Shown here: piece after piece, positions 1 to 25,489 of the stretch | Layout of the letters: every line of letters begins with the position of its first letter | Position numbering within the stretch: position 1 is the first letter of the stretch | Source: an uncultured Gammaproteobacteria bacterium | Lineage (GTDB): Bacteria; Patescibacteriota; Patescibacteriia; UBA2591; CAZVCF01 | Assembly (NCBI GenBank): GCA_964626355.1 | Contig: CAZVCF010000001.1 | Coordinates: forward strand, 26,936 to 61,235 | Length of the DNA stretch: 34,300 nucleotides | Direction: 5' to 3' | Made by a program: the position numbers and the translations under genes | The notes under the pieces: generated by a model | The model's input: only the letters and a program-made list of their open reading frames with translations | Told to the model about the DNA's origin: nothing | Databases searched by the model: none

Positions 1-30
1 TCATTTTACATTTTGATTTTTTAATTTTCA
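1..30. repeat. Partial arm of the AT-rich 'cattttgatttt / aaaatgNaaaatgacaat' inverted-repeat family, cut by the window edge
   Basis: tcattttacattttgatttttta resembles the right-hand arms at 2343-2379, 4600-4632, 6072-6106 and 17440-17473. It lies directly 3' of the stop of the 311-aa gene. Confidence 0.6.
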
Positions 31-36
31 ATTTCT

Positions 37-1927: not shown

Positions 1928-1936
1928 ATTTTAATT

Positions 1937-2379
1937 CAAAATGTAAATATCAAAGTGAAAAATGACAATTTAAAATGGTAAAATTATTTTTTGCCTTTTA
2001 AAGTGAGAATGCTGGACGCAAGAACATTGGCGATCTCTATCAATTCTTTAAGCAACCATCCTAACTCAATACGATCACCCTTATTGGTATCTCGCAATAA
2101 GGTTATCCACATCTTAGATTCGTTCGATGATTTCAAAGCATGAGTAAAAAAGTTGATAAAGTCCTTTTTGGAACTTGCCGAATTGGCTTCAATATAATTA
2201 GCAAGAATACTTGTGCCACTTCTTAAAAGCTGTTTCCCGATTACTACGCAAACTGAATCTTTTGGCAATGCATCAATAAATTTTATCAGCCGAAGGACCC
2301 AATAATAAAGTCTTTTCTTGAATTCATTTTTAAATTTTGCATTGTCATTTTCCATTTTGATTTTTTAACTTTACATTTT
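1937..2379 (-). mobile_element. IVS-like inverted-repeat element carrying an intact four-helix-bundle gene (element A)
   Basis: The left arm at 1937-1976 is aaaatgtaaatatcaaagtgaaaaatgacaatttaaaatg. It is an imperfect reverse complement of the right arm at 2333-2379 (aaattttgcattgtcattttccattttgattttttaactttacatttt). The start codon of the enclosed gene lies inside the right arm. Confidence 0.6.
1984..2355 (-). CDS. Four-helix-bundle protein (23S rRNA intervening-sequence protein family, PF05635/TIGR02436; Avd-related superfamily)
   Basis: ATG at 2355, 123 aa. The diagnostic core is GKQLLRSGTSILANYIEANSASSKKDFINFFTHALKSSNESKMWITLL. Confidence 0.9.
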   Translation of the reverse strand: MENDNAKFKNEFKKRLYYWVLRLIKFIDALPKDSVCVVIGKQLLRSGTSILANYIEANSASSKKDFINFFTHALKSSNESKMWITLLRDTNKGDRIELGWLLKELIEIANVLASSILTLKGKK

Positions 2380-2440
2380 TTCATATTCCACATTCTAAAT
2401 TCAATATTCTATTTAACTCTTCACTATTCGTTATTCACTA

Positions 2441-4261
2441 TTAACTTTTCACTCCTTTTTGTTGCTCCTTCAGATGTTCCGCGAATTCTTTTTTCGCTTC
2501 TTCAACTTCCAAAAGCTGGCGAGGGTCCGTGGTAATTAACTGATCTTCCGCGTACGATGCCACCACGCGAATCGCCGCGTGTTTCGCGCCAGCGAAAAAT
2601 ATCCCTTCTCCAACACCACACTCCAAGAGCAAGAATCGCTCTCCTTCAGTAAGCATAAAGGTCTTTGCCACGCCATCGATCGCGGCGACGGATTGTTTCA
2701 ATAACATCTGCATCGCGCAATTCGTCACGATCGCGCGGCCATACGGATTATTCAAAAAGTCCTGCACGTCTTGTGTAATTGTCGTCACGCCTAAATAATA
2801 TTTTCTGCATCGTTTCACGAGCGCGAAAATAAATTTCGCGGATTCTTCGTATTGCATCAGCCACCATGCCTCATCAATCACTAAAATTCTTCTTTTTGTT
2901 TCTTGGCGCACCACGGTCCAAATGTAATTAACGATGGTATAAATCGCGACCGGACGCAACTCATCTTCCAAATCTCGCACGCTGAAAACAACTAATTGAT
3001 TCGCCATTTTTACATTTGTCGAATTATTGAGCAATCCGCCAAAAGTTCCTTTTGTGTATTTTGATAACCGCTCCATTAACGTTAGCCCGCCTTCCATTCC
3101 TGCAAGCACTTCTTCAAGATCGGACAATGTCGGCATCGTGACGTTTGTTAAATCAACGCCAGGCCCGATATCATGTTTCGCGTATGCTTCCAACAGCGCC
3201 CGATCAAGCAACGAATCTTCCATTGGCGTGAATTGCGGCACACCGCGCTCGTCCTTAACGCCAATCATTAATTTTAATAATCCTTTGAGTGTAATAACTG
3301 CTGAACGCACTACATCTTCAACTTTTATTTCTTTACTTTTCGTTCGTGGCAAATCAAACGGATTAATCTTACTTTCGGACGCAAGCGACACATTCACATA
3401 GGTTCCGCCGACCGCGTCGCATAAATGTTTATATTCTTTTTCCGGATCGATAACGATTACATCAGCGCCGAACATCAAGCTTCTCAAAATTTCGAGTTTT
3501 ACCGTATAACTTTTCCCCGCTCCGGAAGTCGCGAACACCACCATATTGCCATTCGGCATACTGAACCGATCAAAAATCACTAGACTGTTGTTGTGGCGAT
3601 TAATACCATATAAAATCCCTTCGTTCGAACTTAAATCAGCTGAAATAAATGGAAACGACGACGCGCACGGCGACGAATTAAGATTTGACGTGATGAATAA
3701 TTCATCTTTCGCAAACGGCAAGGCGGAAATAAATCCCTGTTCCGATTGATAGAGCGATCGGCGCGTATAAATTAATTTTGACGCGAACAATGATTCAACT
3801 TGATCAGTTACTGATTCAAGCTCTTTAAGCGAGTTTGCGTACGTGGTTACATATAACGCGAACTGAAAAAAATGTTCAACGCCAGTTGTTAAATCGTCGC
3901 GCAGTTTTTCGATATCACGCAACGCTGTTTCCTTTACCGGATCGCGCGGCATACTTTTTTCCTGATCTTCTGATATTTCAGCTTCAAGCGATCCAACACG
4001 ACGCTGTAATTGTTTCAAGACTACGGCCGCTTTTACCGGATAAAAATACATTGCAATATCAAGCTGATTACTAAAGTTAATCGCTGGCGCGAGCCATCCG
4101 ATGCCGATATAGCGCGGATACGCGGACACGAAAATTGTTCGCAAAAATTTACCGTCAAGTTCAATATACTGCGGTGTCACGCGCATCGCGCTCGGCGCGA
4201 TAATGTCATGTAAAGACGCGATTCCTTTTCGATATTTTTCCTCTGTGCTAATAACTTCCAT
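2441..4261 (-). CDS. virB4: VirB4/TrsE/TraE-family T4SS ATPase, C-terminal ~3/4 (middle domain plus P-loop NTPase)
   Basis: Walker A is FATSGAGKSYTVK (TSGAGKS = 3509-3529). Walker B is ILVIDEAW (2864-2887). The upstream conserved block is IIAPSAMRVTPQYIELDGKFLRTIFVSAYPRYIGIGWL. The ORF-track start at 4387 is TTG inside a repeat arm. A GTG at 4360 or the ATG at 4261 are alternatives, and I chose the ATG. Confidence 0.9.
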   Translation of the reverse strand: MEVISTEEKYRKGIASLHDIIAPSAMRVTPQYIELDGKFLRTIFVSAYPRYIGIGWLAPAINFSNQLDIAMYFYPVKAAVVLKQLQRRVGSLEAEISEDQEKSMPRDPVKETALRDIEKLRDDLTTGVEHFFQFALYVTTYANSLKELESVTDQVESLFASKLIYTRRSLYQSEQGFISALPFAKDELFITSNLNSSPCASSFPFISADLSSNEGILYGINRHNNSLVIFDRFSMPNGNMVVFATSGAGKSYTVKLEILRSLMFGADVIVIDPEKEYKHLCDAVGGTYVNVSLASESKINPFDLPRTKSKEIKVEDVVRSAVITLKGLLKLMIGVKDERGVPQFTPMEDSLLDRALLEAYAKHDIGPGVDLTNVTMPTLSDLEEVLAGMEGGLTLMERLSKYTKGTFGGLLNNSTNVKMANQLVVFSVRDLEDELRPVAIYTIVNYIWTVVRQETKRRILVIDEAWWLMQYEESAKFIFALVKRCRKYYLGVTTITQDVQDFLNNPYGRAIVTNCAMQMLLKQSVAAIDGVAKTFMLTEGERFLLLECGVGEGIFFAGAKHAAIRVVASYAEDQLITTDPRQLLEVEEAKKEFAEHLKEQQKGVKS

Positions 4262-4422
4262 TTGCGCGGATTCGGTCAACGCTTCCTTTTTCGGAGCTTC
4301 CGCTTCTTTTTTCTTTTGCGCCGCCTCTGCGCTCGCGAGTTGTGAAGGGTCGATAGCCACGTTCCAAATTAAAAATGTAAATATCAAAATGTAAAATATC
4401 TCCGATATATCCTCGTTCGTTC

Positions 4423-4450
4423 GGAAAGATAAAACATTTTTTATCTTTCC
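4423..4450. repeat. Perfect 12-bp stem / 4-nt loop hairpin inside the nested insert of element B
   Basis: ggaaagataaaa catt ttttatctttcc, verified base by base. Confidence 0.85.
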
Positions 4451-4486
4451 TCTCTTACTTCGGATATGACAATCTAAAATGATAAA

Positions 4487-4612
4487 ATTATTTTTGCCTT
4501 TACCAATAAGAATAATTGAAGCTATTTTTTAATAAACTCAATTAACCACAAAATTATATCATACGGTCTTTCTTAAATTCATTTTTAAATTTTGATTTGT
4601 CATTTTGATTTT
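4487..4612 (-). pseudogene. Internally deleted four-helix-bundle gene remnant
   Basis: The reverse complement of 4570-4612 (atgacaaatcaaaatttaaaaatgaatttaagaaagac) matches the 5' end of the intact gene (atggaaaatgacaatgcaaaatttaaaaatgaattcaagaaaagac). The reverse complement of 4487-4521 encodes ASIILIGKGKN*, against ASSILTLKGKK* in the intact copy. About 290 bp of the middle is missing. Confidence 0.7.
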
Positions 4613-4636
4613 TGATTTTTGCATTTTGAATTATTT

Positions 4637-5287
4637 CTATTCCATCCTCACTTTCTCTGCGTCTTCTAATTTTTGCGTATTCGCGATGACCGGATTAAAA
4701 CTCTCATATGCCAGTTCAATAAGACTTTGCGTATCAAGCGCAACACCCTTAATCCCCATTGCGTTAAGTTGCGACATCACATAGTCAACGCGCTTATAGA
4801 GATCGTTGCGAAATTTTTCAAAACGCTCTTTACTGATGTGGATTAACTGCGCGGCGGAAAAAAGATCGCCTAATCGCGCAAAAAATCCACCGCTATATTT
4901 GCCGCTCCCGGGCGTATACGGCACGACGATATAAAATTTCTTCACCATAATATCGCCAAGCTCAACAAGCTCGCGGACAAAATCGCGATAATCCGCCATC
5001 TGTATCGCCAGAAGATCGTTCTTCATTTGTTCTTGCTTTTTTTTCATTTCCTCAAGATACGGTTCAATATATAACTTGCGCGACTGCACAACAATCTCAA
5101 TTGGAAAATCAACTGAATTAAGAAAACGCACATACGAACTGATAATCGCTTCCTGCTCCTCTTCTGATTTTAACGAAAAATTGATTGACGACACCATAAT
5201 TACCGCGCGCAAACTCCCGTCCCGCATGACCATGCAGTCGTTTTTTATTTCAGAAATCGGAATATATTTTTGAGTTGAAGAAGGCAT
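4637..5287 (-). CDS. virB4: VirB4 N-terminal domain encoded as a separate ORF (split VirB4)
   Basis: ATG at 5287, 216 aa. STQKYIPISEIKNDCMVMRDGSLRAVIMVSSINFSLKSEEEQEAIISSYVRFLNSVDFPIEIVVQS follows the pattern of the extreme N-terminus of Gram-positive VirB4 proteins (Tn916 Orf16 / TcpF / PrgJ class), as recalled from memory. Confidence 0.65.
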   Translation of the reverse strand: MPSSTQKYIPISEIKNDCMVMRDGSLRAVIMVSSINFSLKSEEEQEAIISSYVRFLNSVDFPIEIVVQSRKLYIEPYLEEMKKKQEQMKNDLLAIQMADYRDFVRELVELGDIMVKKFYIVVPYTPGSGKYSGGFFARLGDLFSAAQLIHISKERFEKFRNDLYKRVDYVMSQLNAMGIKGVALDTQSLIELAYESFNPVIANTQKLEDAEKVRME

Positions 5288-5292
5288 AAATC

Positions 5293-5326
5293 AACGAATA
5301 ACGAATCTAATACGAATTTACGAATA
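5293..5326. repeat. 'cgaataacgaat / cgaatttacgaat' simple-repeat module (intergenic copy)
   Basis: aacgaataacgaat (5293-5306) and cgaatttacgaat recur verbatim inside leuS at 23341-23373. Confidence 0.8.
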
Positions 5327-5439
5327 AAGAAAAAATAATTTTATTCTGGGACAGTCCTCAAAAAAAGATAAGGATTGGAGACAATTTTTGTTAAAGGTCA
5401 AATGTCAATGGTCAATTGTTTTTCTCTATTTTTGATTTT

Positions 5440-5868
5440 TTATTTTTGATCTTGTTCTTCGTACGCTCCGCCGGTGTCAACGACTAATGATAATTTTGAC
5501 AATCGCGAAGTAGTTAATTGCGGTCTTTGAGGTGTCTTGTCTTCTTTTTTTTCATTACTATCTTTTATCTTCAGCGATACGATATTGAAATGTTCTCTTT
5601 GCCATATGCGCAAATTCGGTCGTTTGAATGTTTCCGCCATATTCAATAAAAAATAATGGAACGGCTTTCCGTTTACCTTGACAAACGCAAACAGAAGCGC
5701 GAGCGGTAGTATAAAAATACCTGATACGACGAAAAGAGTAAAATCTAAAATCTTATAATTCACAAAAAGAATGACAGCGGTCACGACCAAAATAATAAAT
5801 TGTCGCGGCGTTATTGGGCCGATAATTTTCGGTTCGATATTAATAAATTGCGGAACGATGAACTGCAC
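5440..5868 (-). CDS. PrgI-family / VirB3-like small membrane protein
   Basis: GTG start at 5868, 142 aa. The N-terminus MQFIVPQFINIEPKIIGPITPRQFIILV is followed by two TM helices (VVTAVILFVNYKIL, FVVSGIFILPLALLFAFV). It lies directly upstream of VirB4, as VirB3/PrgI genes do. Confidence 0.6.
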   Translation of the reverse strand: MQFIVPQFINIEPKIIGPITPRQFIILVVTAVILFVNYKILDFTLFVVSGIFILPLALLFAFVKVNGKPFHYFLLNMAETFKRPNLRIWQREHFNIVSLKIKDSNEKKEDKTPQRPQLTTSRLSKLSLVVDTGGAYEEQDQK

Positions 5869-5885
5869 GTTTCAAATTAAAAATT

Positions 5886-6106
5886 AAAAAATCAAAATGT
5901 AAAATTACAATCTAAAATGTTAAAATTATTATTTCCTATTTAAATTTTATAGATTTTGAAATAATTTTATAGAAAATCAAATAAAAATTTTACTTCTGAT
6001 TTCAGTCATTAAGAATCGATTGAAAATTTCAAAATTATTCCTTGCCTTAATTTATTTTTAAATTTTGCATTGTCATTTTGATTTTTGATATTTACATTTT
6101 ACATTT
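5886..6106 (-). mobile_element. Decayed IVS-like inverted-repeat element (element C)
   Basis: The left arm at 5886-5930 is aaaaaatcaaaatgtaaaattacaatctaaaatgttaaaattatt. The right arm at 6056-6106 is tttttaaattttgcattgtcattttgatttttgatatttacattttacattt. The right arm retains the gene-start-like atgacaatgcaaaatttaaaaat on the minus strand. Confidence 0.55.
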
Positions 6107-6139
6107 ATTCTATATTCCATATTCCAAATGCCGTTTTGA

Positions 6140-8305
6140 TTATAGCTTTAGCTTCTTGTTTAGCGCCACGATTGAGCGGAATTCGTCGTAGGTCAGGGTT
6201 TGCGCGCCTGCAGCTTCTTTTCCTTTGATAATGTCTTGCGGCGATTTCAAATTCGCAAATGATTCGTTCATAATCGCGAGATACATTTGATAGAACGGCG
6301 ATTGTTTGAATGCTTGTATGCCCTTCGCCTTCTTCTCAAGGGAGTCTTCTCCCAATAGATTAATTTTATCTAAAATTTTTGAAGTTGCCTCATCGAAATT
6401 CGCATACTTGCGGATATCAGCAAGCGTGATTGACGACAACTCTTCCGCAATGCCATATATTTTTGTCTTCACTTTAATCTCAGCGACTTTGGGGCGGACA
6501 TCGATATCCGCATCGCTTATCGTCTCCTGTGCGCTTTTTACTGCTTGTCGTTGAATACTCGCTTCGTCGCTTCGGATGTCGGAGGTCGGATTTCGGAGGT
6601 CGGATTTCGGAGGTCGGATTTCGGACAACGGCGGCGCGATAAGCGTTTCTTGCATCGCCCCGTTTAATGCCGGAAGTGATAATTTTTGCATCTCACATAT
6701 AAACGGCCCGTGTTCAAAAAGACATTTTTTATACTCCAAGTCGTCCCTCGACTTGTCCCCCGAAGCCTTGGCGAAGGAGGATTCACTTGTCATACCATAT
6801 TTCTGAGGCGGCGCTATTTTTGCTTCAACGACAATTTCTTTCGACGATTCATTATCTGACGCAACCTGAATCGTTTTCTCTTGTTTCACCTCGCCGAAGT
6901 CTTGAATGGATGCGGACTTTGCCTCGCCGAAGCCTTCTTCTTTAGCGAAGGCAGACGTTGGCACCGTTTCCTGTTTTATTGTTTCTTGTGGCTGTGCGAC
7001 TTCTGGTTCATCATGTTTAATTCTTTCAAAAGATATTGGTTCGCCAATCGGCAAATTCTCTGGTGGCTCTCGCATAATTACTCCTTCTCGTCCGCGTAAA
7101 TCCGCGTCTTTTCTATCTGCGTTGATCCGCGTCTCCTCTTGTCCGCGTTGGTCTGCGTCTTCTTTGTCCGCGTTTATCTGCGTTTCCTCTTCTTTTTCGC
7201 GCGGCGGAGAAACGACGACTGTTTCACGCATTAACGGGATCGCGGACACCGTTGCCACAGACGGCTGATATTCCGATACGGCTTTTGAACCAATTTTTTT
7301 TGATTTCAAAAATAAAATAATTTCTGTTATTTTTTCTGGAGATGTTTTTTTGCCATCGTTCGCAAGCGAACGCTCAATCGCGTCTTTGAGCGCGATTGCA
7401 TCGCGCGCGCCACCAAGATAACTCTCAATAATCGCCGCGTATTTTTGAACTGCGTCTACTGACAACGAAAGATTAAATTTGTCATTCATCTCCTGCGTGA
7501 TTTGCAGAGGAACTATTTTTATTTTTGATAAAGCGCCGACTTCCTCTTTCTGTTTCTCTATTTCTTTAATCTCATTTTCATCAAGAAAATCGCCGAATTC
7601 ATTTGTCATCCTTTCAAGAGACGCTGACTCACGCTGACTGCTGGGGACGCTGACCAACGCTGACTGCTGGGGACGCTCTTCGTCGTTTTCTTTATCCGCG
7701 TAAATCCGCGTTTCCTCTTGTCCGCGTAAATCCGCGTTCTTCTTATCTGCGTTTATCTGCGTTTCCTGCAATGTCTCTTCTAAAAGCGCGTTAAGCTCTT
7801 CATCAAGGGACGCTGATTCACGTCTCCCGTCTGCGTTAGTCTCCGTTTCAGTCTGCGTTGGCCCGCGCTCTTCGTTTGCTTGTTGATAATTGATTGTTGA
7901 TTGTTGATAGTTAGCAATCGCTTGTTTCTCCTCTTCCAACATTTTTCTGATTTCGTCTTCAGGAAGCCATTCCTTAATCAACTGCTTGCATTCCGGTAGC
8001 CATTTTTCGAAATCCTTACGCAACACAAACAAAATTTTCGCCGCAAGTTGTTTCGCCTCTGCCTCGTTGATTTTCAAATAATACACAAAATAACTCGGCA
8101 TTTCGCGAGGAAGATCACCATTATACAAAATCCATTGAATAATAGTTTTAATATGCGCGCTTTTCACTATATCGTACATAGCAGTCATTTGCGCGAATCG
8201 TCTTTCTGTCGAATAACGATCAACTAATGCGATTAATTCTTCTGTCGCGCTATCTTCTTTTTCTTCAAAATTGTCCGATATAATTTTATAATTTTTGCTA
8301 TCCAT
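6140..8305 (-). CDS. Hypothetical soluble 721-aa protein with globular N- and C-terminal regions joined by a mosaic of repeat-derived low-complexity segments
   Basis: ATG at 8305, with an open frame of 2.1 kb. There is no TM helix or signal peptide. The middle contains INADKxxADLRGQEETRI modules (twice), SDIRSD/SDLRNP, QQSTINYQQ and FAKASGDKS/FGEAKSAS segments, encoded by repeats that are non-coding elsewhere in the window. Confidence 0.6.
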   Translation of the reverse strand: MDSKNYKIISDNFEEKEDSATEELIALVDRYSTERRFAQMTAMYDIVKSAHIKTIIQWILYNGDLPREMPSYFVYYLKINEAEAKQLAAKILFVLRKDFEKWLPECKQLIKEWLPEDEIRKMLEEEKQAIANYQQSTINYQQANEERGPTQTETETNADGRRESASLDEELNALLEETLQETQINADKKNADLRGQEETRIYADKENDEERPQQSALVSVPSSQRESASLERMTNEFGDFLDENEIKEIEKQKEEVGALSKIKIVPLQITQEMNDKFNLSLSVDAVQKYAAIIESYLGGARDAIALKDAIERSLANDGKKTSPEKITEIILFLKSKKIGSKAVSEYQPSVATVSAIPLMRETVVVSPPREKEEETQINADKEDADQRGQEETRINADRKDADLRGREGVIMREPPENLPIGEPISFERIKHDEPEVAQPQETIKQETVPTSAFAKEEGFGEAKSASIQDFGEVKQEKTIQVASDNESSKEIVVEAKIAPPQKYGMTSESSFAKASGDKSRDDLEYKKCLFEHGPFICEMQKLSLPALNGAMQETLIAPPLSEIRPPKSDLRNPTSDIRSDEASIQRQAVKSAQETISDADIDVRPKVAEIKVKTKIYGIAEELSSITLADIRKYANFDEATSKILDKINLLGEDSLEKKAKGIQAFKQSPFYQMYLAIMNESFANLKSPQDIIKGKEAAGAQTLTYDEFRSIVALNKKLKL
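6572..6626. repeat. Tandem 14-nt repeat tcggatttcggagg (~3.9 copies) inside the 721-aa CDS
   Basis: Units are at 6572-6585 (one substitution), 6586-6599, 6600-6613 and 6614-6626 (partial). The related motif tcggatttcg also occurs in the intergenic element at 31053-31085. Confidence 0.9.
7091..7187. repeat. 'ccgcgtaaatccgcg / atctgcgtt' repeat block, copy 1, in frame in the 721-aa CDS
   Basis: tccgcgtaaatccgcgtc...atctgcgttgatccgcgtc...gtccgcgtttatctgcgtttcc encodes ETQINADKEDADQRGQEETRINADRKDADLRG. Confidence 0.85.
7694..7766. repeat. 'ccgcgtaaatccgcg / atctgcgtt' repeat block, copy 2, in frame in the 721-aa CDS
   Basis: atccgcgtaaatccgcgtttcctcttgtccgcgtaaatccgcgttcttcttatctgcgtttatctgcgtttcc encodes ETQINADKKNADLRGQEETRIYADK. 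Confidence 0.85.
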
Positions 8306-8320
8306 AGATGCGATAATAAT

Positions 8321-11300
8321 TTATTTATTCTCTGATCGTTCTCCTCCAGACGCTTTTGGTGGCGGCTGTTCTTTTGTTTCTTTTTTTCTCTTTTGCGTGC
8401 TCTTTAGCTGCGCGCCATATCTCTTCTCAACTTCTTTATTAATATTTTTTTCTGCTTCTTCCGTCTCGTCAATAGTTTTTTTTGCTTTTTCTATTCTTTT
8501 CGTCAATAGATCAATTTGCGGATCCAGCGCATTGCTTTGCTCCAAAGTATATTTTTCTTGTATATCCAATAATTCTTTTTTCGCTGCATCAATATCTTCC
8601 TTCGCACGCTCTTTGTCCATTACGATTATGCTCTCTGTTTTTCCCTTTGCGACTTCTGGCACTACATCGCGAATCGCGATACGCAATGATGGGCTAATGC
8701 CTAATTTAGGCTCATTCAATATCCGTTCAAGAATCCTTGGATTATCCACTAATCCACCCACAAATTCTTTTAAATTCTCTGGCTTCTCTAAAACTATATT
8801 TTCAATTCCCTGTATTTCTATATCAGCGAAAATACGTGGATCTTTAAGATGCTTTCCTAAATCAGCGTAAGTAATATTTCCTTTATCTAACGCCTGCGAA
8901 AGCATAAGCGGTTTTTTTGTTGTTTTTACAGAGTTTACAATTAAATCAACTGAATATTTTTTGTTGTCTAATTCTTGTTGTTGTTGTTCGTTTGATGCGA
9001 TTTCGCTCTGTTTGTATTGGTATTCATCGCTCTTTTTTGCAACAGCTTCCGCCTCACCATCAGAAAGATCGGGCTTTTTCTCTTTCGCTTCCTGTATTTT
9101 TTTATTTTTAATAACTTCTAATTCTTTTTGCAATACAAGTTTATGCGCTTGTAATACAGTTGTTTGATTTTTCATATGATCTGAGAATTGTTCCATTTTA
9201 TTCAATCCTTTAGCCACTGCGTCTTGAATCGCCGGAGGCAAACGTTTATAATCCCGATCAAAACGATCGCCCAATCCAGAAACAATCGCGTGCGCAAATC
9301 GTTCTGCTGATTCTTCGCTCAAATGCTGTGCCTGATCAGGATTTTTACTGATATAAGAACCGAACTCCGCGTCATTTTTGAAATTTTTCTCAAGAGCGGT
9401 TTTCTGATCCACCCCTCTATTGATATCAATAATAAGATTACCTGCTATAGATTTCGCAAAATCCTGAAGTCCTGCTGGAGTTTTGTCATCATAAGCGATT
9501 TTATTAAATCCTTCGCGGACTAAATCTTTATTTGCAAGCGACGCGTCTTTCATCTGATTAGAGATATTCGGGTTCGCATCAGCAAAATCTTTTAACATCG
9601 CACTTCTGTTCGTTGTCATATCAGGCGTATCTTCTGTTGTATGAGTGAACGCTTTCATCATATTTTCAATATAATCTTTATTATTCAAATTAGTGCGGTC
9701 AATGGTGTATTCTTTGAAAAATGCGCTTATACCTTTATCATCAATTCCATTAGCGCGCAATGTATCAAACTTGCCAGTATTAATCGCTAAAAACTCCGCG
9801 GCAAGCGCGCGATGATCATTGCCCAAACCCTTGCCAGTTGCATCAGCTTTAAAAGTAGTTTCATCAACTTTAAAATTGTTAAAAAAATCTTTTTTATCCT
9901 CTGGCTTGATATCTCGGTATACCTCTTTTAAAAATGTGTCAAACTTTTCTTTTGTCATATCACGCGATTTTGCGATATCCGGGATAAGATCCGCGCGATC
10001 TTTCGCGCTCAATGAATTCATATCTACCTGACCGCTATTGATTCGATTAGCCAATCTTCCTCTTTCCTCTGGATTGTTGAGTTTATATGCTAATGAAGCG
10101 AATTGTTTGCTAATACCAAGCGTATCAATCCCTTGTTCAGTATCTAAAAGACCTATTTTTTTAAGCGCGTCTATATGTTTATTCATAATCTCTCCCCCTT
10201 TAATCTCTTTCCCTTCATCATCTTTCTCATCTTTTAATTTTAATCCTCCCTTGCGCCCTGCTAAGATTTTTATCATTGCCAATGATTCATCGCTTCCTGC
10301 TCGTGTTTTGCTTAATCGCTCTTGCAGTCCCTTTGTATCTAAATTTTTAAATTTTAAATTAGCCAAAAGCTCTATTTCTTTTTCTTTTCGGCTTGTCGTA
10401 AGTTGATCGGCCGCTAATTCCATCCGCGTCTTATCTTTATATATATCTTCTTTCCCTTGTACTTTCTTATAAAGATTTTTTAGATTAAGATATTTTCCGG
10501 CAACCGAAGCTCCTTTCACCCATTTTTCCGCGGAGAAATCAATTGCTCTACCGCGCGCGCGAGAAAAAATATTTCCCTCTTTTCCTGCCGCTCTTTTTGC
10601 TTCCTCGCGTCGTTTTGAAAAATCCTTGCGCAACTTCTTCGCTTTCATAAAATCTTCCGTCTTTTTTACCAATGTCCCTGCGGCTCCGCCCATTTGTGAT
10701 GCCATTGAAATGCTCATTTGCAAACCTCCTAAAAGCAACGCGATACCGATTATAAAATTCAGCATATACGCGGGCGTGCCGCTTGTTCCGGGGCCGACGG
10801 TCACGCCGCCTTCCTGTAATTTACTTTCCGCGCCGCCCATTTTCATTGTTCCTCCAATACCTTTATCACCCGCATCCGCAACAACCGCGAGCGCGAGCCA
10901 CAAAAAAAATGCAATAAAGGGCCCGACCATCACCGTTGTGCTAAATTTTGACCACCAATCGGTCGCAAAGCGTCGCGTAAACGGCAATATTGTTCCCACA
11001 AACGCGATCGGAGACATTGCCACTAAAAGCCACAACGATACAATACGCGCGACAATAATAGACAACATTACGCCGACGACAATAACGGCGATTACTAATA
11101 ACACGATTGCGAGAATGAGCGAGCCAAGAAGATTTCCAGTGCTTTGAGCGGTTGCCGGTCCATTCGCCGTTTCCACCATATCTTTGATGCCTAACAAGGC
11201 TGCCATATTCCCCTCGCCCGCGTCTTTAAGCGCGGACATAAAAGTCAACATCACCACTTGTCCGAAATCAATAAGCAATCCCGCGATCGCTTTGCTGAAA

Positions 11301-11701
11301 TTGACCATCACCGCCGCGGTTAATAACGCCGGCAATGTTTTACTGTAATGATATTCTTGCCAACCGAGCACGGTCGCGAATGAAATCACCAGCAAAATCA
11401 CAATGAAAAACATATTAAATACGTCGCGCAAAATTACCCATCCTTTTGTCACCGCTCCTGAATCCATAAACCCATTATATTGTCCAACCGCAATGACAAG
11501 GCGCACTTCAAGACCCAATAATTTCCCCAAAACATTAATAATCATTCCAAAAAATGATCCAAGCGCTGTATTTAACCACTCTTGCGCTAAAACAACATTC
11601 GGCGCGAATAACAAAAAAACGAATAGTGCGATACATAAACCAGCGCACATTTTTTTGTGTTGCGAAAAAAAATTAAAAAAAAATTTGCGAAATATAATCA
11701 T
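8321..11701 (-). CDS. VirB6/TrbL-like polytopic membrane protein with a ~750-aa charged C-terminal extension
   Basis: ATG at 11701; the ORF-track GTG at 11839 overlaps the upstream gene by 98 nt. The signal-like N-terminus is MIIFRKFFFNFFSQHKKMCAGLCIALFVFLLFAPNVVLAQE. The next ~350 aa hold at least 6 hydrophobic helices (e.g. FNMFFIVILLVISFATVLG, LGSLILAIVLLVIAVIVVGVMLSIIVARIVSLWLLVAMSPIAFV, VMVGPFIAFFLWLALAVV). A K/E/D-rich tail follows. Confidence 0.6.
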   Translation of the reverse strand: MIIFRKFFFNFFSQHKKMCAGLCIALFVFLLFAPNVVLAQEWLNTALGSFFGMIINVLGKLLGLEVRLVIAVGQYNGFMDSGAVTKGWVILRDVFNMFFIVILLVISFATVLGWQEYHYSKTLPALLTAAVMVNFSKAIAGLLIDFGQVVMLTFMSALKDAGEGNMAALLGIKDMVETANGPATAQSTGNLLGSLILAIVLLVIAVIVVGVMLSIIVARIVSLWLLVAMSPIAFVGTILPFTRRFATDWWSKFSTTVMVGPFIAFFLWLALAVVADAGDKGIGGTMKMGGAESKLQEGGVTVGPGTSGTPAYMLNFIIGIALLLGGLQMSISMASQMGGAAGTLVKKTEDFMKAKKLRKDFSKRREEAKRAAGKEGNIFSRARGRAIDFSAEKWVKGASVAGKYLNLKNLYKKVQGKEDIYKDKTRMELAADQLTTSRKEKEIELLANLKFKNLDTKGLQERLSKTRAGSDESLAMIKILAGRKGGLKLKDEKDDEGKEIKGGEIMNKHIDALKKIGLLDTEQGIDTLGISKQFASLAYKLNNPEERGRLANRINSGQVDMNSLSAKDRADLIPDIAKSRDMTKEKFDTFLKEVYRDIKPEDKKDFFNNFKVDETTFKADATGKGLGNDHRALAAEFLAINTGKFDTLRANGIDDKGISAFFKEYTIDRTNLNNKDYIENMMKAFTHTTEDTPDMTTNRSAMLKDFADANPNISNQMKDASLANKDLVREGFNKIAYDDKTPAGLQDFAKSIAGNLIIDINRGVDQKTALEKNFKNDAEFGSYISKNPDQAQHLSEESAERFAHAIVSGLGDRFDRDYKRLPPAIQDAVAKGLNKMEQFSDHMKNQTTVLQAHKLVLQKELEVIKNKKIQEAKEKKPDLSDGEAEAVAKKSDEYQYKQSEIASNEQQQQELDNKKYSVDLIVNSVKTTKKPLMLSQALDKGNITYADLGKHLKDPRIFADIEIQGIENIVLEKPENLKEFVGGLVDNPRILERILNEPKLGISPSLRIAIRDVVPEVAKGKTESIIVMDKERAKEDIDAAKKELLDIQEKYTLEQSNALDPQIDLLTKRIEKAKKTIDETEEAEKNINKEVEKRYGAQLKSTQKRKKETKEQPPPKASGGERSENK

Positions 11702-11741
11702 TGTATAAAAATTTTCAGTAAAAATGATTTTGAAATGGGTT

Positions 11742-14700
11742 CTAGTCAATATATCGCTCGTTTTGAGGATCCCAATTCGGATCTGGCGCGTTTCCGCACG
11801 GACCCCCTGCTGTTCTTGGATACGTGTAACAGGATCCACCGCCTTGATATTTTAATGGCGCGCCGGCAGAACCCTCCGGATCTAATAAATCTCCGTCGTC
11901 ACACTGCTCATAAGCCTCAACAATTCCATTACTACAAACATTCTGTTTGCACGATCGTGCTACATTAAAGCGTGGACAACTCGCGCTTGAATCATCACAG
12001 TCTTCTCCGGGTTCTATAATATCATTGCCGCAAATCGGAGCTGCGGCGCCAGTCGGCAGCCACGTGATACATTCCGCAATCTCTCCATTACGTGAAGTGT
12101 CGTATTCCAAACAATATCCTTTTTGCCCGCGATATATTTTTTCCTTCAAATCAATAAACGCCGACACCTCGCATTTGCCCGGATTGTTGCTTAAATCAAT
12201 TCCGCAATCGCCATCAGTACTACACGGTCTTCCGACCATATCCGGCCGCCCATTGATACAGGTCTTCGCACGAAATCTATTCGATGATTCATTATCATTC
12301 AAATAAAAAATCTGTGATTGTCCGACAGCAACTTTTTTATAATTACACTGACATTGCTCCAGAGACGTAGAAGTCGAATTACATACATTCACATTTACAT
12401 ATCCTAATCCTCCTTCTTCTACTGAACCACCGATAATCTGCTTAAACGGAGAATCTTTTTCCGGGAACGCCTTACAAATCTGTGGCGTTGTTGTCGCGAG
12501 ATCAAGTCCAAGCGATGATATACCGATAGACCCGTCACCATACGAAAAAAGACGCCGATCGCTTGTACGTTGATAGAGCGATTCAATCGGTTTTATATTC
12601 ATCAACGAATAACCTGAATAATCAAGACCGGTGAAGGTTACGTCGCGCTTAATATATTCTTGTTGATGCAACGCCGACGCGCTTGAAGTAGCGTGTATCA
12701 CGAGCACGAGATTATTCGGATCGTTTTCAAAATAACCGCGTCGTCCCTGACTGATACTTACACATTTGTTGCGATATTGCCCATTCAAATCATAGACCTG
12801 CTCATACGCGGTGCATGCAATCCACTCTCCGCAGGTACGGTCTTTACGCGCTTGAAAAATCACATTCGCATCGTTAAGGTTTGACATTTCACCTGGCTGT
12901 AAAGCAACGGGATCAATTAAACTATACGGCGGTGTCGCGTTTTTGCTTTTCTGGTAGGTCGCAGCGGTTTTATAATATTTCACCACATTGCTCTCTATAT
13001 CTTTCAACGATGTGTCAATCACCAATACGCAATCTTCGGCGGCGCTTACTTTACCTTGACATTCGCCTCTCTTCAAACGCGCGTTATTAAGATAATAATA
13101 TTTTTGCCGATTTAATTTTGATAAATTGTCTGGATCTGTTGGGTCAGGCACTTCAAATAACGAACATTTTTCTTTTGATGATGGGCACACTGCCGCCGCG
13201 TACTTTGTTGATTCATTTCCCCACGTATAACTCGGACTGACCGGATTATTTTCGAAATCGCACGCTTCTTCGGTGCCACGTTTGAACCATCCTGAAATTT
13301 TTGCTGAGGTAACTCCGTTGAGCACTACTGCGATGTTCGTTTTGTATTCGCACGTCTTAACCGGGTCCTTGAAATATACCTTTCCGCCGCTTGAATCTTC
13401 AAACGTCTGACATCCTGTTTTCTCCGAGCCACATAAAATAGAATTATCGCGATACCGATTCGGAGTATCTTTCACATATACGTTTCGATAAGTCGTTGCC
13501 TCGCCATTTGAACCGAGACTCGGCATTCCAAACCGGCTACATCCCATATTAAGCGCTGTACATTGTTTCGCCTTGAAATCATTTTTTTCAGGCGTGTATA
13601 CATAATACTCGATGGTGTCGGTTGCGATAGTCAGTGGCGCGTTGTTATACAATCCTTTGTCAACAGATTCAGAAAACGGTGTTAACGTATTTTGCGTATT
13701 GATAAACGCTTCGCATCCAACTTTTTGTTCTGAACATAAATTCGTAAATGATTTGAGCGTTTTTGTTTGTTTCGCGCGATTCGTATATGAGCGGCAACCA
13801 AGAAAGTTTGGTTCCGGCTTACACGAATCAGGCGTATTCCACGTATCGGAAATCAAATAAAAATTTTGATTTACTTCCTGTAAAAAAATATTGTCAAAAA
13901 ATACCGTTGGCGTTCCTCCGCCAAAATACTCAACCCGTATTGTCAGTTCGCTGTTTTGGTCGAAATCTCTATTAAGATAGAACGTGCCAAAATCAATTTT
14001 CTGCCATCCGATTGCGCCAGTTACCGGAGCGCCCCACCGAATTCCTCCAATAAACGCAGTTGCGGCAATATTTGTTGATACTGGATCCGGCACATTAATC
14101 CACGCGCTTAACGCATATGATCTTTCTCGTCGCACTAATGAACCGATTGGTCTTGTTATTGTTGCGACATACGGCGCGCTGCCTGTCCGTAGAACCATAA
14201 TTGAATGTCCTCCGAAATAAATTGACTCCGTGCTCATCTCGATAGTATTGCCACTATACGGCACGAATGAACCATTTTCGAAATTGTCATACAAAATCGT
14301 TCGTACATTCGCGCCGGCGTTGCCTTGATATTTTTCACAACCGACCGCGCTTGCGCTGCACGTTTTCCCTTGTGCCGCGATCGCCATAAAATTAATCTTC
14401 TCGCATGCGCCGTTATTCATCACACCATTGATTGAAACACACGTTGTTGTTGGCAGATCGTAAATCGCTGGTTCGGTTTTACGATACGCGGAACAGTCAG
14501 CGGAACACGAAATCGTATTTTCAAAAACACGATAATAAATTCCTCCTTTTGAATCGTAAAATTCCTTGCAATTCGGATTCACCAGCGCATCGTCGTGGCT
14601 CGCGCAATTACCCAAATCAACGCGCGGATTTGGAACGGTTTTTGGACCACCGCTTGCTGAATTTTCAGAAAGATAATAACGCTTCAATTGATAGCCACTT

Positions 14701-17126
14701 GTGTCGCTTCCGACCCATGTGTAGTAATTCTTGCACGTCGCGCCAACAGGATTGACCGGCGGCGGCACAATCGCTCCAGTTGCGTCAAGTTTCACACACT
14801 GACGAATCTGCGTATAATATTCTCGTCCCTCGCCGCCTTTCGCCACCTCGGACAAATTGGTAAATTCTGAACAACCGACCGCGTTCGCGCTGCAACTTTC
14901 CGCGCTCTTTGGAATAAAATTCAATAAATCTCTTCCCTTGTTAAAGTTGCTCGGCATTTCTTTGAATGTTTCTAATCCAACGCACTCCGACGGACATTGA
15001 TCGTTATCGGTCACAATCGCGGGAATTTTTTTGTCCGGAAAATTTTGATCATAATACGCGTCACATCCAACTTGTTGATAGGAACATTGCGTGAGATATT
15101 TTTCACATTCAGGAGAATCGTTGTCAGAGCTGCCGTCGTAGCATTTCATCCACTCCGGAGCTTTGCGCAAATACGCGCTGTTCGCAAAACCATATTTTTT
15201 GAATGGCGTCGCGCGCGTTCCCGCTTCAAATTGAATATTATCAATTGATAACGCGCCGCTTCCGGAAAATACGTCAGATATAAAAATCTGTAAATCCTCT
15301 GAATTATTGAGGTCAGAAAAACTATTGAACGGATGCGCGAATGAAAGACTATAACGTTGCCAATCGGATTGAGATGCTATTATCGTTGAAACGACCACAA
15401 CGCCTGACCCGGCATAATCTGCTCCGCGCAACGAAATCGTATGATTATTTATATCACTATTTTTCGCGTCAAAAGAAATTGTATAGGTTCCAACTGGGAG
15501 AACAATTGGATCTTCCGGACGAATTCCTGATCCGGACGCGCTTATAAAAACATTTACATTTTCTCCGTTTGCGGTGCTAGTCGCGCTGAACGAAACTCCT
15601 GAACCAATTGTTTGCCATCCTTTCACTTCATTCGCGCCAACAACGCCATCTCTGTTCGCATCAACCCAATCATTCAATTCCGGATTTCGCGCGAGATTCG
15701 TTCCTAAACCGCTCTTTTCACGCGAGAACCACGTGCATCCTTCCGCAGTTGGTTTGCACAATTCCGCGCGCGCGTTAAAAAATTTCGCGTTCAATGGATT
15801 TGTTGTCGTGTTCGCAACTGTTTCGGTTGAAGTGACTGAATAATTAAAACAATCTCTTCTGCACTCACTCGAGCCTCCTTTTCCTTCTCTTAATTCGCAA
15901 AGATCATTCCCACATTCCTCAAGGGGAGGATTATCTATTGGACCTTCCTCTTTCCAAACCTCCATAATATTTGCAACCGTTGTTACGTTACTTATTGAAA
16001 GACCCGGTTTCTTGCACTTCCACGCGCCGGTTGTGATATCCTTATCATATTCCTGGCACAACCATTGACATCCGGACGAGTCCTGATCGCATTGCGCAGA
16101 ATCCAAACTATTCGCCAAATAAAAAAACTTTTTATCGTCTTTAAGACGGGTGTATTTGCCGCAACTTTCGTATTGCGTTTCGCACGCGTCGCCGTCAAAC
16201 CGCCACCGATTCAATTCACGCGTGCAATATCCCCACGCGACGCATTTGCCATTTTCATCCTCGCGCACGCAATCTTGCGTATCAACGCACGTTTCATTTC
16301 GATCTTTTGATTCCGGCGATTGCGGCGAACGGCTGTACGCGGTCAATTCGCATCGCAAAGGCGGTAATTTTAATACCCAGCTCGGATCAACTAAATTGCA
16401 AAATGGGCTTGTGTCATCAATAGTGCCACATTTTCCATCCGGACCGTATTGATAAAAACCATTGACAATTTCCCGCAACTTCACTTTATCAGTCCCCCGG
16501 ATGAGCGGATCATTCCCAATACGACGCGCAGCTATTTCCAATCCAAGAGGCACCACGCGCGCGCGGCGCAATTTTTTTATATTGCTCAATGAATAACGGG
16601 TTGTATAATCTGCAACACCATCAACCGTATCTCTCGTTGGCGCGCCAACGAACCAATCACCATGCAGATATCCTTTCTCAATCGCGCGCTTAATAGTGAG
16701 ATGCTCTTCAATCGCCTGACGAAAACCGGTGTCAATAACACAGTTGTTCACTGTCGCGTATTTTGCTCCTTGCGGAGGGCACAGCGAAAATTCAGTCAGT
16801 AAATCAACCGATCCTGCTTGTTTCAGCTCAACCAATTGCACGCCCGGCGATGTTTGTGGTTCGCTTGGAATAAAATCTTTCTCCTCCTGCGCACTTGATT
16901 CTTCTGACAACGCACTTTCCTCCGCACTGCCTTCAACACCGCCCAGACTTTGGCCTCCGCCAATTGATAGTCCACCTCCCGGAATCAATTGATTCTGGCA
17001 CGTATTCGTCGGATCATACGGACAAGGGTCTCTCGCGGGACGAGATTGGGCAAAAACAACACCGCCGGCAATCAAAATGATTCCGAAGAATATAAATAAT
17101 ATTATTTTTTTTCGAGAAAACAACAT
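11742..17126 (-). CDS. Giant (~1794 aa) secreted cysteine-rich protein with two CBM4_9-like beta-sandwich regions and C-terminal Myxococcus-type cysteine-rich repeats
   Basis: ATG at 17126 gives the signal peptide MLFSRKKIILFIFFGIILIAGGVVFAQS; the ORF-track TTG at 17144 lies in a repeat arm. There are at least 10 copies of C-x6-C-x2-[FYW] (CSANAVGCSEF, CSASAVGCEKY, CSEQKVGCEAF, CTALNMGCSRF, CGSEKTGCQTF and others). The jelly-roll-like segments are ~15219-15700 (NLARNPELNDW...NIQFEAG) and ~13875-14298 (ILYDNFENGSF...FFDNIFLQE). CGNDIIEPGEDCDD and CSNGIVEAYEQCDDGD are encoded at 11889-12032. Confidence 0.85.
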   Translation of the reverse strand: MLFSRKKIILFIFFGIILIAGGVVFAQSRPARDPCPYDPTNTCQNQLIPGGGLSIGGGQSLGGVEGSAEESALSEESSAQEEKDFIPSEPQTSPGVQLVELKQAGSVDLLTEFSLCPPQGAKYATVNNCVIDTGFRQAIEEHLTIKRAIEKGYLHGDWFVGAPTRDTVDGVADYTTRYSLSNIKKLRRARVVPLGLEIAARRIGNDPLIRGTDKVKLREIVNGFYQYGPDGKCGTIDDTSPFCNLVDPSWVLKLPPLRCELTAYSRSPQSPESKDRNETCVDTQDCVREDENGKCVAWGYCTRELNRWRFDGDACETQYESCGKYTRLKDDKKFFYLANSLDSAQCDQDSSGCQWLCQEYDKDITTGAWKCKKPGLSISNVTTVANIMEVWKEEGPIDNPPLEECGNDLCELREGKGGSSECRRDCFNYSVTSTETVANTTTNPLNAKFFNARAELCKPTAEGCTWFSREKSGLGTNLARNPELNDWVDANRDGVVGANEVKGWQTIGSGVSFSATSTANGENVNVFISASGSGIRPEDPIVLPVGTYTISFDAKNSDINNHTISLRGADYAGSGVVVVSTIIASQSDWQRYSLSFAHPFNSFSDLNNSEDLQIFISDVFSGSGALSIDNIQFEAGTRATPFKKYGFANSAYLRKAPEWMKCYDGSSDNDSPECEKYLTQCSYQQVGCDAYYDQNFPDKKIPAIVTDNDQCPSECVGLETFKEMPSNFNKGRDLLNFIPKSAESCSANAVGCSEFTNLSEVAKGGEGREYYTQIRQCVKLDATGAIVPPPVNPVGATCKNYYTWVGSDTSGYQLKRYYLSENSASGGPKTVPNPRVDLGNCASHDDALVNPNCKEFYDSKGGIYYRVFENTISCSADCSAYRKTEPAIYDLPTTTCVSINGVMNNGACEKINFMAIAAQGKTCSASAVGCEKYQGNAGANVRTILYDNFENGSFVPYSGNTIEMSTESIYFGGHSIMVLRTGSAPYVATITRPIGSLVRRERSYALSAWINVPDPVSTNIAATAFIGGIRWGAPVTGAIGWQKIDFGTFYLNRDFDQNSELTIRVEYFGGGTPTVFFDNIFLQEVNQNFYLISDTWNTPDSCKPEPNFLGCRSYTNRAKQTKTLKSFTNLCSEQKVGCEAFINTQNTLTPFSESVDKGLYNNAPLTIATDTIEYYVYTPEKNDFKAKQCTALNMGCSRFGMPSLGSNGEATTYRNVYVKDTPNRYRDNSILCGSEKTGCQTFEDSSGGKVYFKDPVKTCEYKTNIAVVLNGVTSAKISGWFKRGTEEACDFENNPVSPSYTWGNESTKYAAAVCPSSKEKCSLFEVPDPTDPDNLSKLNRQKYYYLNNARLKRGECQGKVSAAEDCVLVIDTSLKDIESNVVKYYKTAATYQKSKNATPPYSLIDPVALQPGEMSNLNDANVIFQARKDRTCGEWIACTAYEQVYDLNGQYRNKCVSISQGRRGYFENDPNNLVLVIHATSSASALHQQEYIKRDVTFTGLDYSGYSLMNIKPIESLYQRTSDRRLFSYGDGSIGISSLGLDLATTTPQICKAFPEKDSPFKQIIGGSVEEGGLGYVNVNVCNSTSTSLEQCQCNYKKVAVGQSQIFYLNDNESSNRFRAKTCINGRPDMVGRPCSTDGDCGIDLSNNPGKCEVSAFIDLKEKIYRGQKGYCLEYDTSRNGEIAECITWLPTGAAAPICGNDIIEPGEDCDDSSASCPRFNVARSCKQNVCSNGIVEAYEQCDDGDLLDPEGSAGAPLKYQGGGSCYTYPRTAGGPCGNAPDPNWDPQNERYID

Positions 17127-17129
17127 CTT

Positions 17130-17473
17130 AAATTCAAAATGCAAAAATCAAAATGCAAAATGACAATGTAAAATGCAAAATAATCAATAAAAATTTTATA
17201 TTTTCAATTTTTATTAAATTTTTCCGATTTCCTTTTAAAAAATCGTGTATCTTTGATTGTTTCGCATCGGGACAATAAATCAATTTTCGATAATTCTAAT
17301 TTTAGTTTTAAGTTGTAGTTTGATTCGTGCTTTAATTATTATAAAGGGTGGTAGTTCGTATTTTGCGCTCGCTTGAAAACAAAAAAAGTGAAATCAAGCG
17401 AAGCCTTCTGTTTATTTAAATTTTATCATTTAATCATTGTCATTTTCCATTTTGATATTTACATTTTACATTT
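17130..17473 (-). mobile_element. Decayed IVS-like inverted-repeat element (element D) between the 777-aa and giant genes
   Basis: The left arm at 17130-17185 is aaattcaaaatgcaaaaatcaaaatgcaaaatgacaatgtaaaatgcaaaataatc. The right arm at 17414-17473 is ...atcattgtcattttccattttgatatttacattttacattt. The arms are largely reverse-complementary (atcaaaatgNaaaatgacaatg core). The interior has no long ORF. Confidence 0.55.
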
Positions 17474-21876: not shown

Positions 21877-21914
21877 ATATACACATATTAAACGATCGTG
21901 TAGATAGTGTATAT
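21877..21914. promoter_or_regulatory. Imperfect 38-bp palindrome (operator-like site 1) between the regulator gene and rsmA
   Basis: The sequence is atatacacatattaaacgatcgtgtagatagtgtatat. The outer 8 bp and the cgatcg core pair. It shares atatacac..aaacgatcgt..gtgtatat with site 2. Confidence 0.55.
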
Positions 21915-25479: not shown

Positions 25480-25489
25480 ATCATAATTC

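Follow-up and report, generated by a model that had tools for sequence, protein, structure and literature searches.

The window analysed here is a 34,300-nt stretch of contig CAZVCF010000001.1 (GenBank assembly GCA_964626355.1), and the subject is a group of short elements bounded by inverted repeats that lie in the gaps of an operon. One of them encloses an intact gene for a four-helix-bundle (4HB) protein of the 23S rRNA intervening sequence (IVS) family. All sizeable genes of the window's left two thirds are carried on the minus strand. They include a cluster resembling a type IV secretion system (T4SS), in which profile searches identified a VirB4/TraG-type ATPase (2441-4387), a TraC-like protein (4637-5287), and PrgI (5440-5868); no Pfam domain was found in the very large proteins of the cluster. 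Most genes have no Shine-Dalgarno-like sequence ahead of the start codon. Rfam identified no known RNA family in the window and returned one chance-level miRNA match. An original prediction, made from the letters of the window, had listed four elements (A to D) and an edge fragment, and had proposed that their arms form double-stranded RNA (dsRNA) stems that punctuate the polycistronic mRNA or, alternatively, that they delimit mobile cassettes.

The arms lie where they had been predicted. Their core pattern, TTGTCATTTTNNNTTTTGATWTTT with at most two mismatches allowed, has 9 matches in the window against 0.01 expected from shuffled window sequence, and the inverted pairs were recovered by a repeat finder. 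Boundaries changed only slightly on redrawing, to ~1925-2392 for element A, 4358-4636 for B, 5866-6115 for C, 17122-17480 for D, and 1-36 for the edge arm. On the plus strand, the A-rich arm (AATTCAAAATG..ATCAAAATG.AAAATGACAATG..) comes first and its T-rich reverse complement last. Tandem Repeats Finder (TRF) resolved all arms into period-7 arrays of ~4-8 units around a conserved ATGACAAT core, so the suspicion that they might be generic AT sequence does not hold. Wherever a cassette is present, the next start codon follows ~7-15 nt past the U-rich arm. The four elements and the edge fragment are all there; a solo arm, an arm inside leuS, and arrays of other units had been missed. The features are as follows.

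1-36, minus strand: edge arm, the upstream arm (A-rich in the mRNA sense) of another cassette that the window edge truncates (repeat families D3/D5); it starts directly past the stop codon of gene 37-972 and holds a period-7 array at 4-34.
1925-1990, minus strand: downstream arm of element A (U-rich in the mRNA sense), inverted pair I14, pattern match at 1945-1968; it ends ~12 nt ahead of the start codon of gene 1355-1927.
1984-2355, minus strand: 4HB gene of the 23S rRNA IVS protein family (PF05635/TIGR02436), 123 aa.
2320-2392, minus strand: upstream arm of element A, where the 4HB gene begins, with its ATG and ~11 opening codons.
2393-2440, minus strand: second heptamer array, unit AATAGTG/AATAACG, between the stop codon of the VirB4-like gene and element A (overlapped by a TRF period-7 call at 2416-2453).
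4358-4636, minus strand: element B, an internal-deletion relic with arms and, when aligned to A, the first ~27 and last ~12 codons.
5288-5450, minus strand: gap between the PrgI and TraC-like genes, with a solo TTATTCG/ACGAATA array (5288-5330) directly upstream of the TraC-like ATG and an ATTTTTG array (5428-5450) whose length departs by exactly one heptamer from that in the NCBI assembly described below.
5866-6115, minus strand: element C, a relic that retains both arms and, of the 4HB gene, 15 codons at the start and 6 at the end.
17122-17480, minus strand: element D, with well-preserved arms (pair I23, 88% complementary), 16 opening codons of the gene, and an unrelated interior 220 nt long.
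24323-24380, minus strand: in-frame arm (..FKIQNAKIKNQNDNLKFKN..) inside leuS, where it adds 15 aa to the editing domain compared with Thermus thermophilus LeuRS.
25480-25540, minus strand: element E, a downstream arm on its own that still carries the last 4HB codons, directly upstream of the leuS start codon.

The gene enclosed by element A is intact, as had been claimed, and its start codon (ATG, 2353-2355) does lie within the arm. The protein scores 60.5 bits against PF05635 (2e-16; family cut-off 33.8 bits) and 73.7 bits against TIGR02436 (cut-off 24 bits), and it matches PDB entry 2rld at 5e-13. Its nearest relatives, 79% (L015) and 66% (L056) identical, occur in unrelated contexts. Pairs with unsaturated dS gave dN/dS values of 0.09-0.11; judged from these coding sequences, the 4HB protein is under purifying selection.

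The other copies form a series of decay. The original prediction held that elements B to D kept the arms and gene ends and had lost the middle; alignment to A bears this out for B and C, and D is without the 3′ end of the gene. Element B corresponds to A minus 255 internal nt; in addition, a hairpin insert of 68 nt (4398-4465) is nested in the downstream arm of B and divides it. This insert has a stem GGAAAGATAAAA/TTTTATCTTTCC and a hairpin at 4423-4450 with AT on both flanks, and no second copy of it was found in the window or the fetched loci. BLAST of the interiors of C and D and of the insert in B against all fetched loci was uninformative. The array at 2393-2440 is likely, from its units, a relic arm of another cassette type, the cassette at locus L179 having ACGAATA units. 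Inside leuS, the arm at 24323-24380 is read in the frame of the 4HB N-terminus (..NQNDNLKFKN.. versus MENDNAKFKNEF), and a second heptamer array nearby is a 25-aa insertion relative to T. thermophilus LeuRS; with inserts of 15 and 25 aa, this essential enzyme therefore tolerates arm-derived peptides. The leuS gene holds period-7 arrays at 24055-24105, 24323-24380, and 24757-24796, two of which are insertions within or just past the editing domain. Other in-frame intragenic period-7 arrays were seen at 6572-6625, 7876-7912, 20300-20334, 20562-20603, 23196-23224, 23800-23823, and 24649-24679.

A near-identical assembly records changes on the shortest scale. An exact look-up of the 4HB protein in public assemblies gave no match; the adjoining TraC-like protein led to contig JACPLV010000092.1 of GCA_016186335.1 (locus L001), to which the window is 99.9% identical. 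That contig breaks off inside element A's 4HB gene, as a repeated sequence would lead one to expect. Over the 13 kb compared, the sole indel is exactly 7 nt, or one heptamer, in the array at ~5430, and two of the four substitutions fall within the array at 2400-2440 (positions of note ~5430, 2407, 2436, and 2211).

Gain, loss, and relocation were examined in 80 metagenomic loci with VirB4 orthologues 64-74% identical and the p721-PrgI-TraC-VirB4 gene order kept. Here, as throughout, comparisons were drawn mostly from metagenome contigs; genes in the metagenome and genome-scan loci are approximations based on open reading frames (ORFs), and those in plasmid loci follow the record annotation. 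Gaps in these operons are mostly short, that between p721 and PrgI measuring ~10-30 nt versus 271 nt in the window. A minority of the loci have 4HB genes, which occupy four different gaps and lie on the operon strand in every case: between p721 and PrgI (L120, L173), between PrgI and TraC (L137 and the frameshifted L146), between TraC and VirB4 (L166, L172), and after VirB4 (L124, L151, L153). Closely related cassettes sit in different gaps. Those of L166 (1438-1882) and L173 (8200-8644) are 80.5% identical over 445 nt including the arms, in operons that are themselves 77-81% identical. The cassettes of L137 (473-954) and L124 (3656-4138) are 80.4% identical, and their host genes only ~70%. 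Filled and empty gaps were also found among close relatives. Alignment of L137 (filled) with L138 (87% identical) runs up to the stop codon and resumes at the start of the next gene, and the counterpart gap in L138 is 84 nt long with an array of a different heptamer. L183 contains two copies of a 124-161-nt palindrome of another heptamer type, one site of which is empty in L185 (88.6% identical). Two further candidates for cassette gain or loss were rejected: the L159/L163 indel is a low-complexity coding indel, and that between L191 and L199 is unrelated and adjoins a tRNA. Different heptamer types occur in one operon gap of genomes 11-13% diverged (L138 5450-5530; L185 9135-9190; L183 8870-9030 and 9726-9850). 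Different cassette lineages, these alignments suggest, have repeatedly colonised the same gaps.

Insertion is tight and in the sense orientation. Among full-length cassettes, the 4HB gene points the same way as the upstream ORF in 22 of 22 cases, and as the downstream ORF in 18 of 19. Median spacing is ~39 nt between the upstream stop codon and the 4HB ATG, and ~56 nt between the 4HB stop codon and the ATG that follows.

The heptamer itself varies among cassette clades (CAAAATG, GTAAAAA, TCTAATT, CAATTTT, CACGTAA, CTAGTGG, ACGAATA, and others). In the clades examined, the two arms of one cassette are always reverse complements and arm type tracks protein clade. The locus set selected by arm sequence is skewed to one heptamer type; the VirB4-selected and plasmid sets are not. 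The same architecture is present in cultured bacteria, where all five plasmid-borne 4HB genes inspected (from the cyanobacteria Nostoc, Planktothrix, and Gloeocapsa and the Chloroflexota member Chlorohelix) have inverted heptamer arrays. These are (AATTCGT)4/(ACGAATT)4 in Nostoc flagelliforme and (AATTCGC)4/(GCGAATT)4 in Nostoc ATCC 53789, and the Planktothrix, Gloeocapsa, and Chlorohelix genes are likewise flanked. The plasmid cassettes are also tight and in the sense orientation. Four of the five lie between defence or restriction-modification genes, and that of N. flagelliforme between hypothetical genes. In the four former (L208, a Planktothrix plasmid, L209, L210, and L211), the contexts are DISARM drmD/4HB/BREX PglX, helicase/4HB/N6-methylase, DUF1156/4HB/Swt1 HEPN, and cytosine methyltransferase/4HB; the arrays of L211 extend into the neighbouring coding sequences.

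An exact-pattern scan of species-representative genomes placed window-type arm sequence in at least 118 loci from many lineages. Among the matches listed, most are from Patescibacteria of many classes, and the other contig labels are Omnitrophota, Nitrospirae/Thermodesulfovibrionia, Chlamydiae, Planctomycetes, Deltaproteobacteria, Chloroflexi, and a Pacearchaeota archaeon. Several carrier contigs have 48-60% GC, against which the AT-rich element contrasts sharply. At most listed loci, the arms face each other with ~20-90 nt between pattern matches, forming ~85-150-nt palindromes that keep the start region of the 4HB gene; at some, including L015 and L056, arms surround an intact 4HB gene exactly as in A. 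Locus L091 (Candidatus Brennerbacteria) links these elements to rRNA: its contig carries a heavily interrupted 23S rRNA gene and three window-type palindromes, one of which is within a 455-nt insertion between positions 2608 and 2652 of the large subunit (LSU) rRNA model. A window-type palindrome is nested in a GC-richer palindromic repeat (GTCATTACCGCGAAAGCGGGAATCCAG ... CTGGATTCCCGCTTTCGCGGTAATGAC) at L006 1500-1710. The arm pattern had only 7 matches in 2.9 million viral contigs and there is therefore no sign of a phage vector.

Collectively, we read the window elements as copies of a selfish cassette that rides in operons and is of the same kind as the ORF-bearing IVSs of 23S rRNA, and assign this reading a probability of about 0.78. 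Mobility, which the original prediction had offered as one of two possibilities, is strongly supported by the filled and empty orthologous gaps and by closely related cassettes in different gaps, together with the spread of the arms and the inverted arrays around every 4HB gene checked. The unit is a promoter-less 4HB gene between two inverted arrays of ~4-8 tandem heptamers each. It would insert in the sense orientation into a short gap between co-transcribed genes or into an rRNA gene, occupy the gap from upstream stop codon to downstream start codon, and be expressed by read-through. In an active phase, the 4HB gene would be held by purifying selection; later, decay by internal deletion would leave relics reduced to a hairpin (B, C, D, as well as the ~85-150-nt palindromes) and solo arms (E), and the remaining arrays would slip by whole heptamers. 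The comparisons establish how the cassette is built, which family its gene belongs to, its sense-only orientation, its decay series, its turnover at and relocation among orthologous gaps, and its occurrence within the span of a 23S rRNA gene. The inverted arrays are probably required at the DNA level for movement, to judge by their complementarity, which young copies have in full and which is later lost with no compensating changes, and the 4HB protein presumably serves the element.

Several points weigh against this interpretation. Movement itself has not been directly observed, and domain searches of sizeable ORFs found no transposase, recombinase, or reverse transcriptase in the window. No unambiguous target duplication was seen: in the filled/empty pair L183/L185 the insert adjoins a TTTTAAA unit identical to the unit of its own arm, so that a 7-nt duplication is indistinguishable from homology, and the identical copies in L020 and L110 share no common flanking target-site duplication. 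Co-orientation in 22 of 22 cases has a chance of ~2e-7 under random orientation with cases counted as independent, a figure weakened because nine oriented cassettes come from one operon family; the host genomes also have long same-strand gene runs. The spread across phyla is less certain because taxon labels on contigs of metagenome-assembled genomes can be wrong. Gain and loss could instead have come about by recombination between heptamer arrays after DNA uptake, with no transposition, and the 4HB protein may benefit the host rather than the element.

A bolder version of the cassette interpretation is advanced only tentatively. The 4HB gene and its inverted arrays might constitute an autonomous mobile element of an unrecognised class, in which a pentamer-forming 4HB protein, and not a transposase, works on the period-7 arrays and so moves or copies the cassette sense-wise into transcribed DNA; rRNA IVSs, the heptamer pairs of Xanthomonas and cyanobacteria (STRR-type), and the hairpin relics that occupy gaps between genes in candidate phyla radiation (CPR) bacteria would then all be its products. 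In a variant of this idea, a long stem that runs from upstream stop codon to downstream start codon, as modelled for D, might keep translation coupled, or allow maturation by RNase III, across an inserted cassette; if true, this would explain why operons tolerate it.

The alternative that survives best is the one put forward in the original prediction, in which the elements are selected mRNA punctuation: the dsRNA stem would be a host-beneficial RNase III processing or segmentation site that tunes the relative stability or translation of cistrons, and the 4HB gene would be incidental. Predicted folding of the arm pairs gave the following duplexes, with z scores relative to shuffles.

Element D: 53 bp, -47.4 kcal/mol, z -8.9.
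Element A: 40 bp, -29.0 kcal/mol, z -5.7.
Element C: 41 bp, -19.9 kcal/mol, z -2.4.
Element B: 25 bp, -11.9 kcal/mol, z -1.1.

The stems proposed from the letters alone are thus predicted to be long for D and, less so, for A, weak for C, and no better than shuffles for B. Minimum-free-energy prediction likewise pairs the arms of A and of D, and the fold of the whole of element D has a z of -7.3. Within the base of the D stem (53 bp, -47 kcal/mol) lie both the upstream stop codon, that of gene 17472-19805, and the downstream start codon at 17127, that of an 1800-aa gene. Homologous IVS stems in rRNA are cut by RNase III (PMC4990558), and clades of cassettes share complementarity rather than sequence. 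In the transcript, the arms of D and A would be expected to form a long A-U stem that loops the cassette out, and well-preserved copies such as these could, by analogy, be cut by RNase III. Set against these points, the predicted duplexes of cognate arm pairs are no better than those of non-cognate ones, and the arms are just ~78-79% complementary. In 20 non-redundant full-length cassettes (79% complementary), mismatches comprised 34 of the sense G-U type, 39 of the A-C type, and 130 transversions; 35 short elements, oriented by their neighbours, gave 51, 68, and 294. G-U does not exceed A-C in either set, so the arms carry no RNA-type signature, and transversions dominate. Complementarity looks as if it was set at copying, being perfect in the Nostoc copies, and then neutrally lost, and this pattern suits ends required for movement better than a stem continuously required by the host. 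Moreover, most orthologous operons function without any element, and arms also occur solo and within coding sequence. Selected punctuation is accordingly a doubtful explanation of the elements as a whole.

It is improbable that the elements are transcription modules. On this account an arm read outward is a sigma-70-like promoter (TTGTCA-N17-TAcATT) 7-15 nt before the start codon of the neighbour, and the hairpin terminates incoming transcription. Such hexamers are visible in CAAAATG-type arms (TTGTCA/TACATT at 6070-6098 and similar 9-of-12 matches), start codons lie close behind the arm, and Shine-Dalgarno sites are lacking. However, a scan of the window found 69 promoter-like sites versus 47 ± 9 in shuffles, so the matches in the arms are ordinary for AT-rich DNA. 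The arms of other clades (CACGTAA, AATTCGT, ATGAAGG, and CTAGTGG) are quite different and cannot be promoters, the second outward promoter would yield antisense transcription into the upstream gene, and the A-U-rich stems are not called as terminators.

Still less probable is that the arms are debris of polymerase slippage, that is, heptamer arrays arising locally in AT-rich DNA whose inversion and association with a 4HB gene are coincidental. Arrays do change by whole heptamers between near-identical strains, the window has ~25 period-7 arrays, some of them intragenic, and heptamer arrays are over-represented in some bacteria (PMC4692102). Yet the non-repetitive core ATGACAAT and the flanking gene ends are in register in all copies and in >100 loci, paired arrays are reverse complements in every clade examined, and the whole cassette, arms included, is a conserved unit on appearing in a new gap. 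Slippage is contradicted as a full explanation and stays only as a process that lengthens and shortens arrays. An accessory role in a diversity-generating retroelement (DGR), with the 4HB protein as Avd and the repeats as template and variable regions, is hardly credible: PF05635 does include Avd, with its homologous four-helix-bundle fold (the family is also cited in PMC10053308), but no reverse transcriptase domain was found in any sizeable ORF of the window, a repeat search of the window found no template/variable repeat pair, and the repeats, being inverted heptamer arrays, do not duplicate any coding segment.

The window has other repeats and structured stretches. A different 45-nt inverted repeat containing AAACGATCG (21877-21921 and 22604-22648, 80% complementary) flanks a 184-aa PaaX/Cas2-like gene at 22014-22568 and may mark another kind of gene cassette. 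The GC-rich motif TTGCCTAYTCCGCCGAAGTAGC ... GGCTAYGAAGGCCGGGCAAAA occurs in two long intergenic gaps (22700-22770 and 30880-31010); in the gap at 30780-31102 it lies between inverted TCGGATTTCG-type heptamer arrays and may represent a further nested repeat family. The gap at 973-1354 (382 nt) is GC-rich and looks structured, with an inverted repeat (~1218-1260 versus 1316-1359) and, on the plus strand, a near-consensus promoter-like site (1105-1132) and a terminator-like hairpin (1179-1199). A gene for a small RNA, running antisense to the operon, could lie here; no Rfam family matches the gap. Finally, an 87-nt tandem duplication (1.9 copies, 80% identical) lies at 25735-25896 within an unannotated 231-aa gene (25639-26334).

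The window elements share features with several known systems. Like MITEs (miniature transposable elements bounded by inverted repeats), they have terminal inverted repeats, small size, no transposase, many copies, and presence/absence polymorphism. A MITE has a parent insertion sequence that shares its ends and encodes a transposase, and here the full-length partners of the arms encode only the 4HB protein, with no transposase in the window. The statement that such elements had not been described as mRNA punctuation was too strong, as the Correia (NEMIS) elements of Neisseria, with their RNase III processing, and the ERIC and REP repeats are precedents. Correia transcripts are cut by RNase III. 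The Neisseria Correia, enterobacterial ERIC/RU, and REP/BIME families resemble the window elements as short, multicopy, co-transcribed intergenic elements bounded by inverted repeats. RU/ERIC copies also occur in frame inside genes (PMC2759123), as the arm in leuS does. In contrast, Correia, ERIC, and REP have fixed sequences, Correia with a TA duplication, whereas the arms of the window are clade-variable heptamer arrays; and none of the three is a deletion derivative of a cassette with a conserved non-transposase gene, unlike the window relics.

The STRR repeats of Nostoc and Calothrix are heptamer arrays. Arrays of GGGAATC in Xanthomonas and GGGGATT in Nostoc and Calothrix are intergenic, occur inside operons, often form convergent inverted pairs, and vary in length among close relatives (PMC4692102). 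They were regarded there as G-quadruplex-forming, with no role assigned and no link to 4HB genes, whereas the arrays in the window and on the five plasmids flank a 4HB gene or its relic. For such arrays, so far catalogued with no cause assigned, the cassette would offer an explanation.

No rRNA was identified in the window by Rfam, and all copies there lie between or inside protein-coding genes. Among known systems, the closest are the ORF-bearing IVSs of rRNA. IVSs were described ~35 years ago, and their origin and the role of the ORF, where one is carried, are still debated. The IVS of Coxiella has two to three tandem GACAGAT units before the ATG of S23p, in a copy number that varies among strains, a sense-oriented ORF, and a 28-bp terminal stem that RNase III cuts at the first unit (PMC4990558). 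The ORF is decayed in some strains, the distribution is sporadic and horizontal, and that the IVS is a mobile element with an ORF serving mobility, or a remnant of one, is cited as an open hypothesis (PMC4990558). ORFs of the 23S_rRNA_IVP family have been recorded in 16S and 23S insertions of CPR bacteria (PMC11270868). The kinship asserted in the original prediction holds: the window cassette and the IVSs of Coxiella burnetii and Leptospira share the gene family (PF05635/TIGR02436), enclosing terminal inverted repeats, tandem heptamers before the ATG, and a sense-oriented ORF, and L091 carries a window-type palindrome in a 23S rRNA gene. The enclosing stem is strong in D, moderate in A, weak in C, and lost in B; most are far less perfect than the 28-bp stem of Coxiella, and it is for the rRNA IVS that excision by RNase III is known. 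The host also differs, being a polycistronic mRNA operon (T4SS-like genes and leuS) with several copies per operon. Separately, all three ingredients are already known: IVSs with an ORF, the 4HB family, and heptamer arrays. In our search of the open-access literature, no paper connected 4HB genes with inverted heptamer arrays or described them as mobile cassettes in operons, and none reported the union of the three as one cassette, its residence in protein-coding operons, or its turnover between gaps. The window and its relatives show the ORF-bearing IVS to be just one setting of a far more widespread cassette, which enters ordinary operons as well, is recognisable by inverted period-7 arrays around a conserved 4HB gene, and is gained, relocated, and eroded over short evolutionary scales. 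In streamlined CPR genomes, it also offers an explanation for some of the intergenic DNA, for assembly breaks, and even for insertions read in frame within essential genes, and the question of IVS origin becomes directly testable because the same architecture is present in the defence and restriction-modification operons of cultured cyanobacteria.

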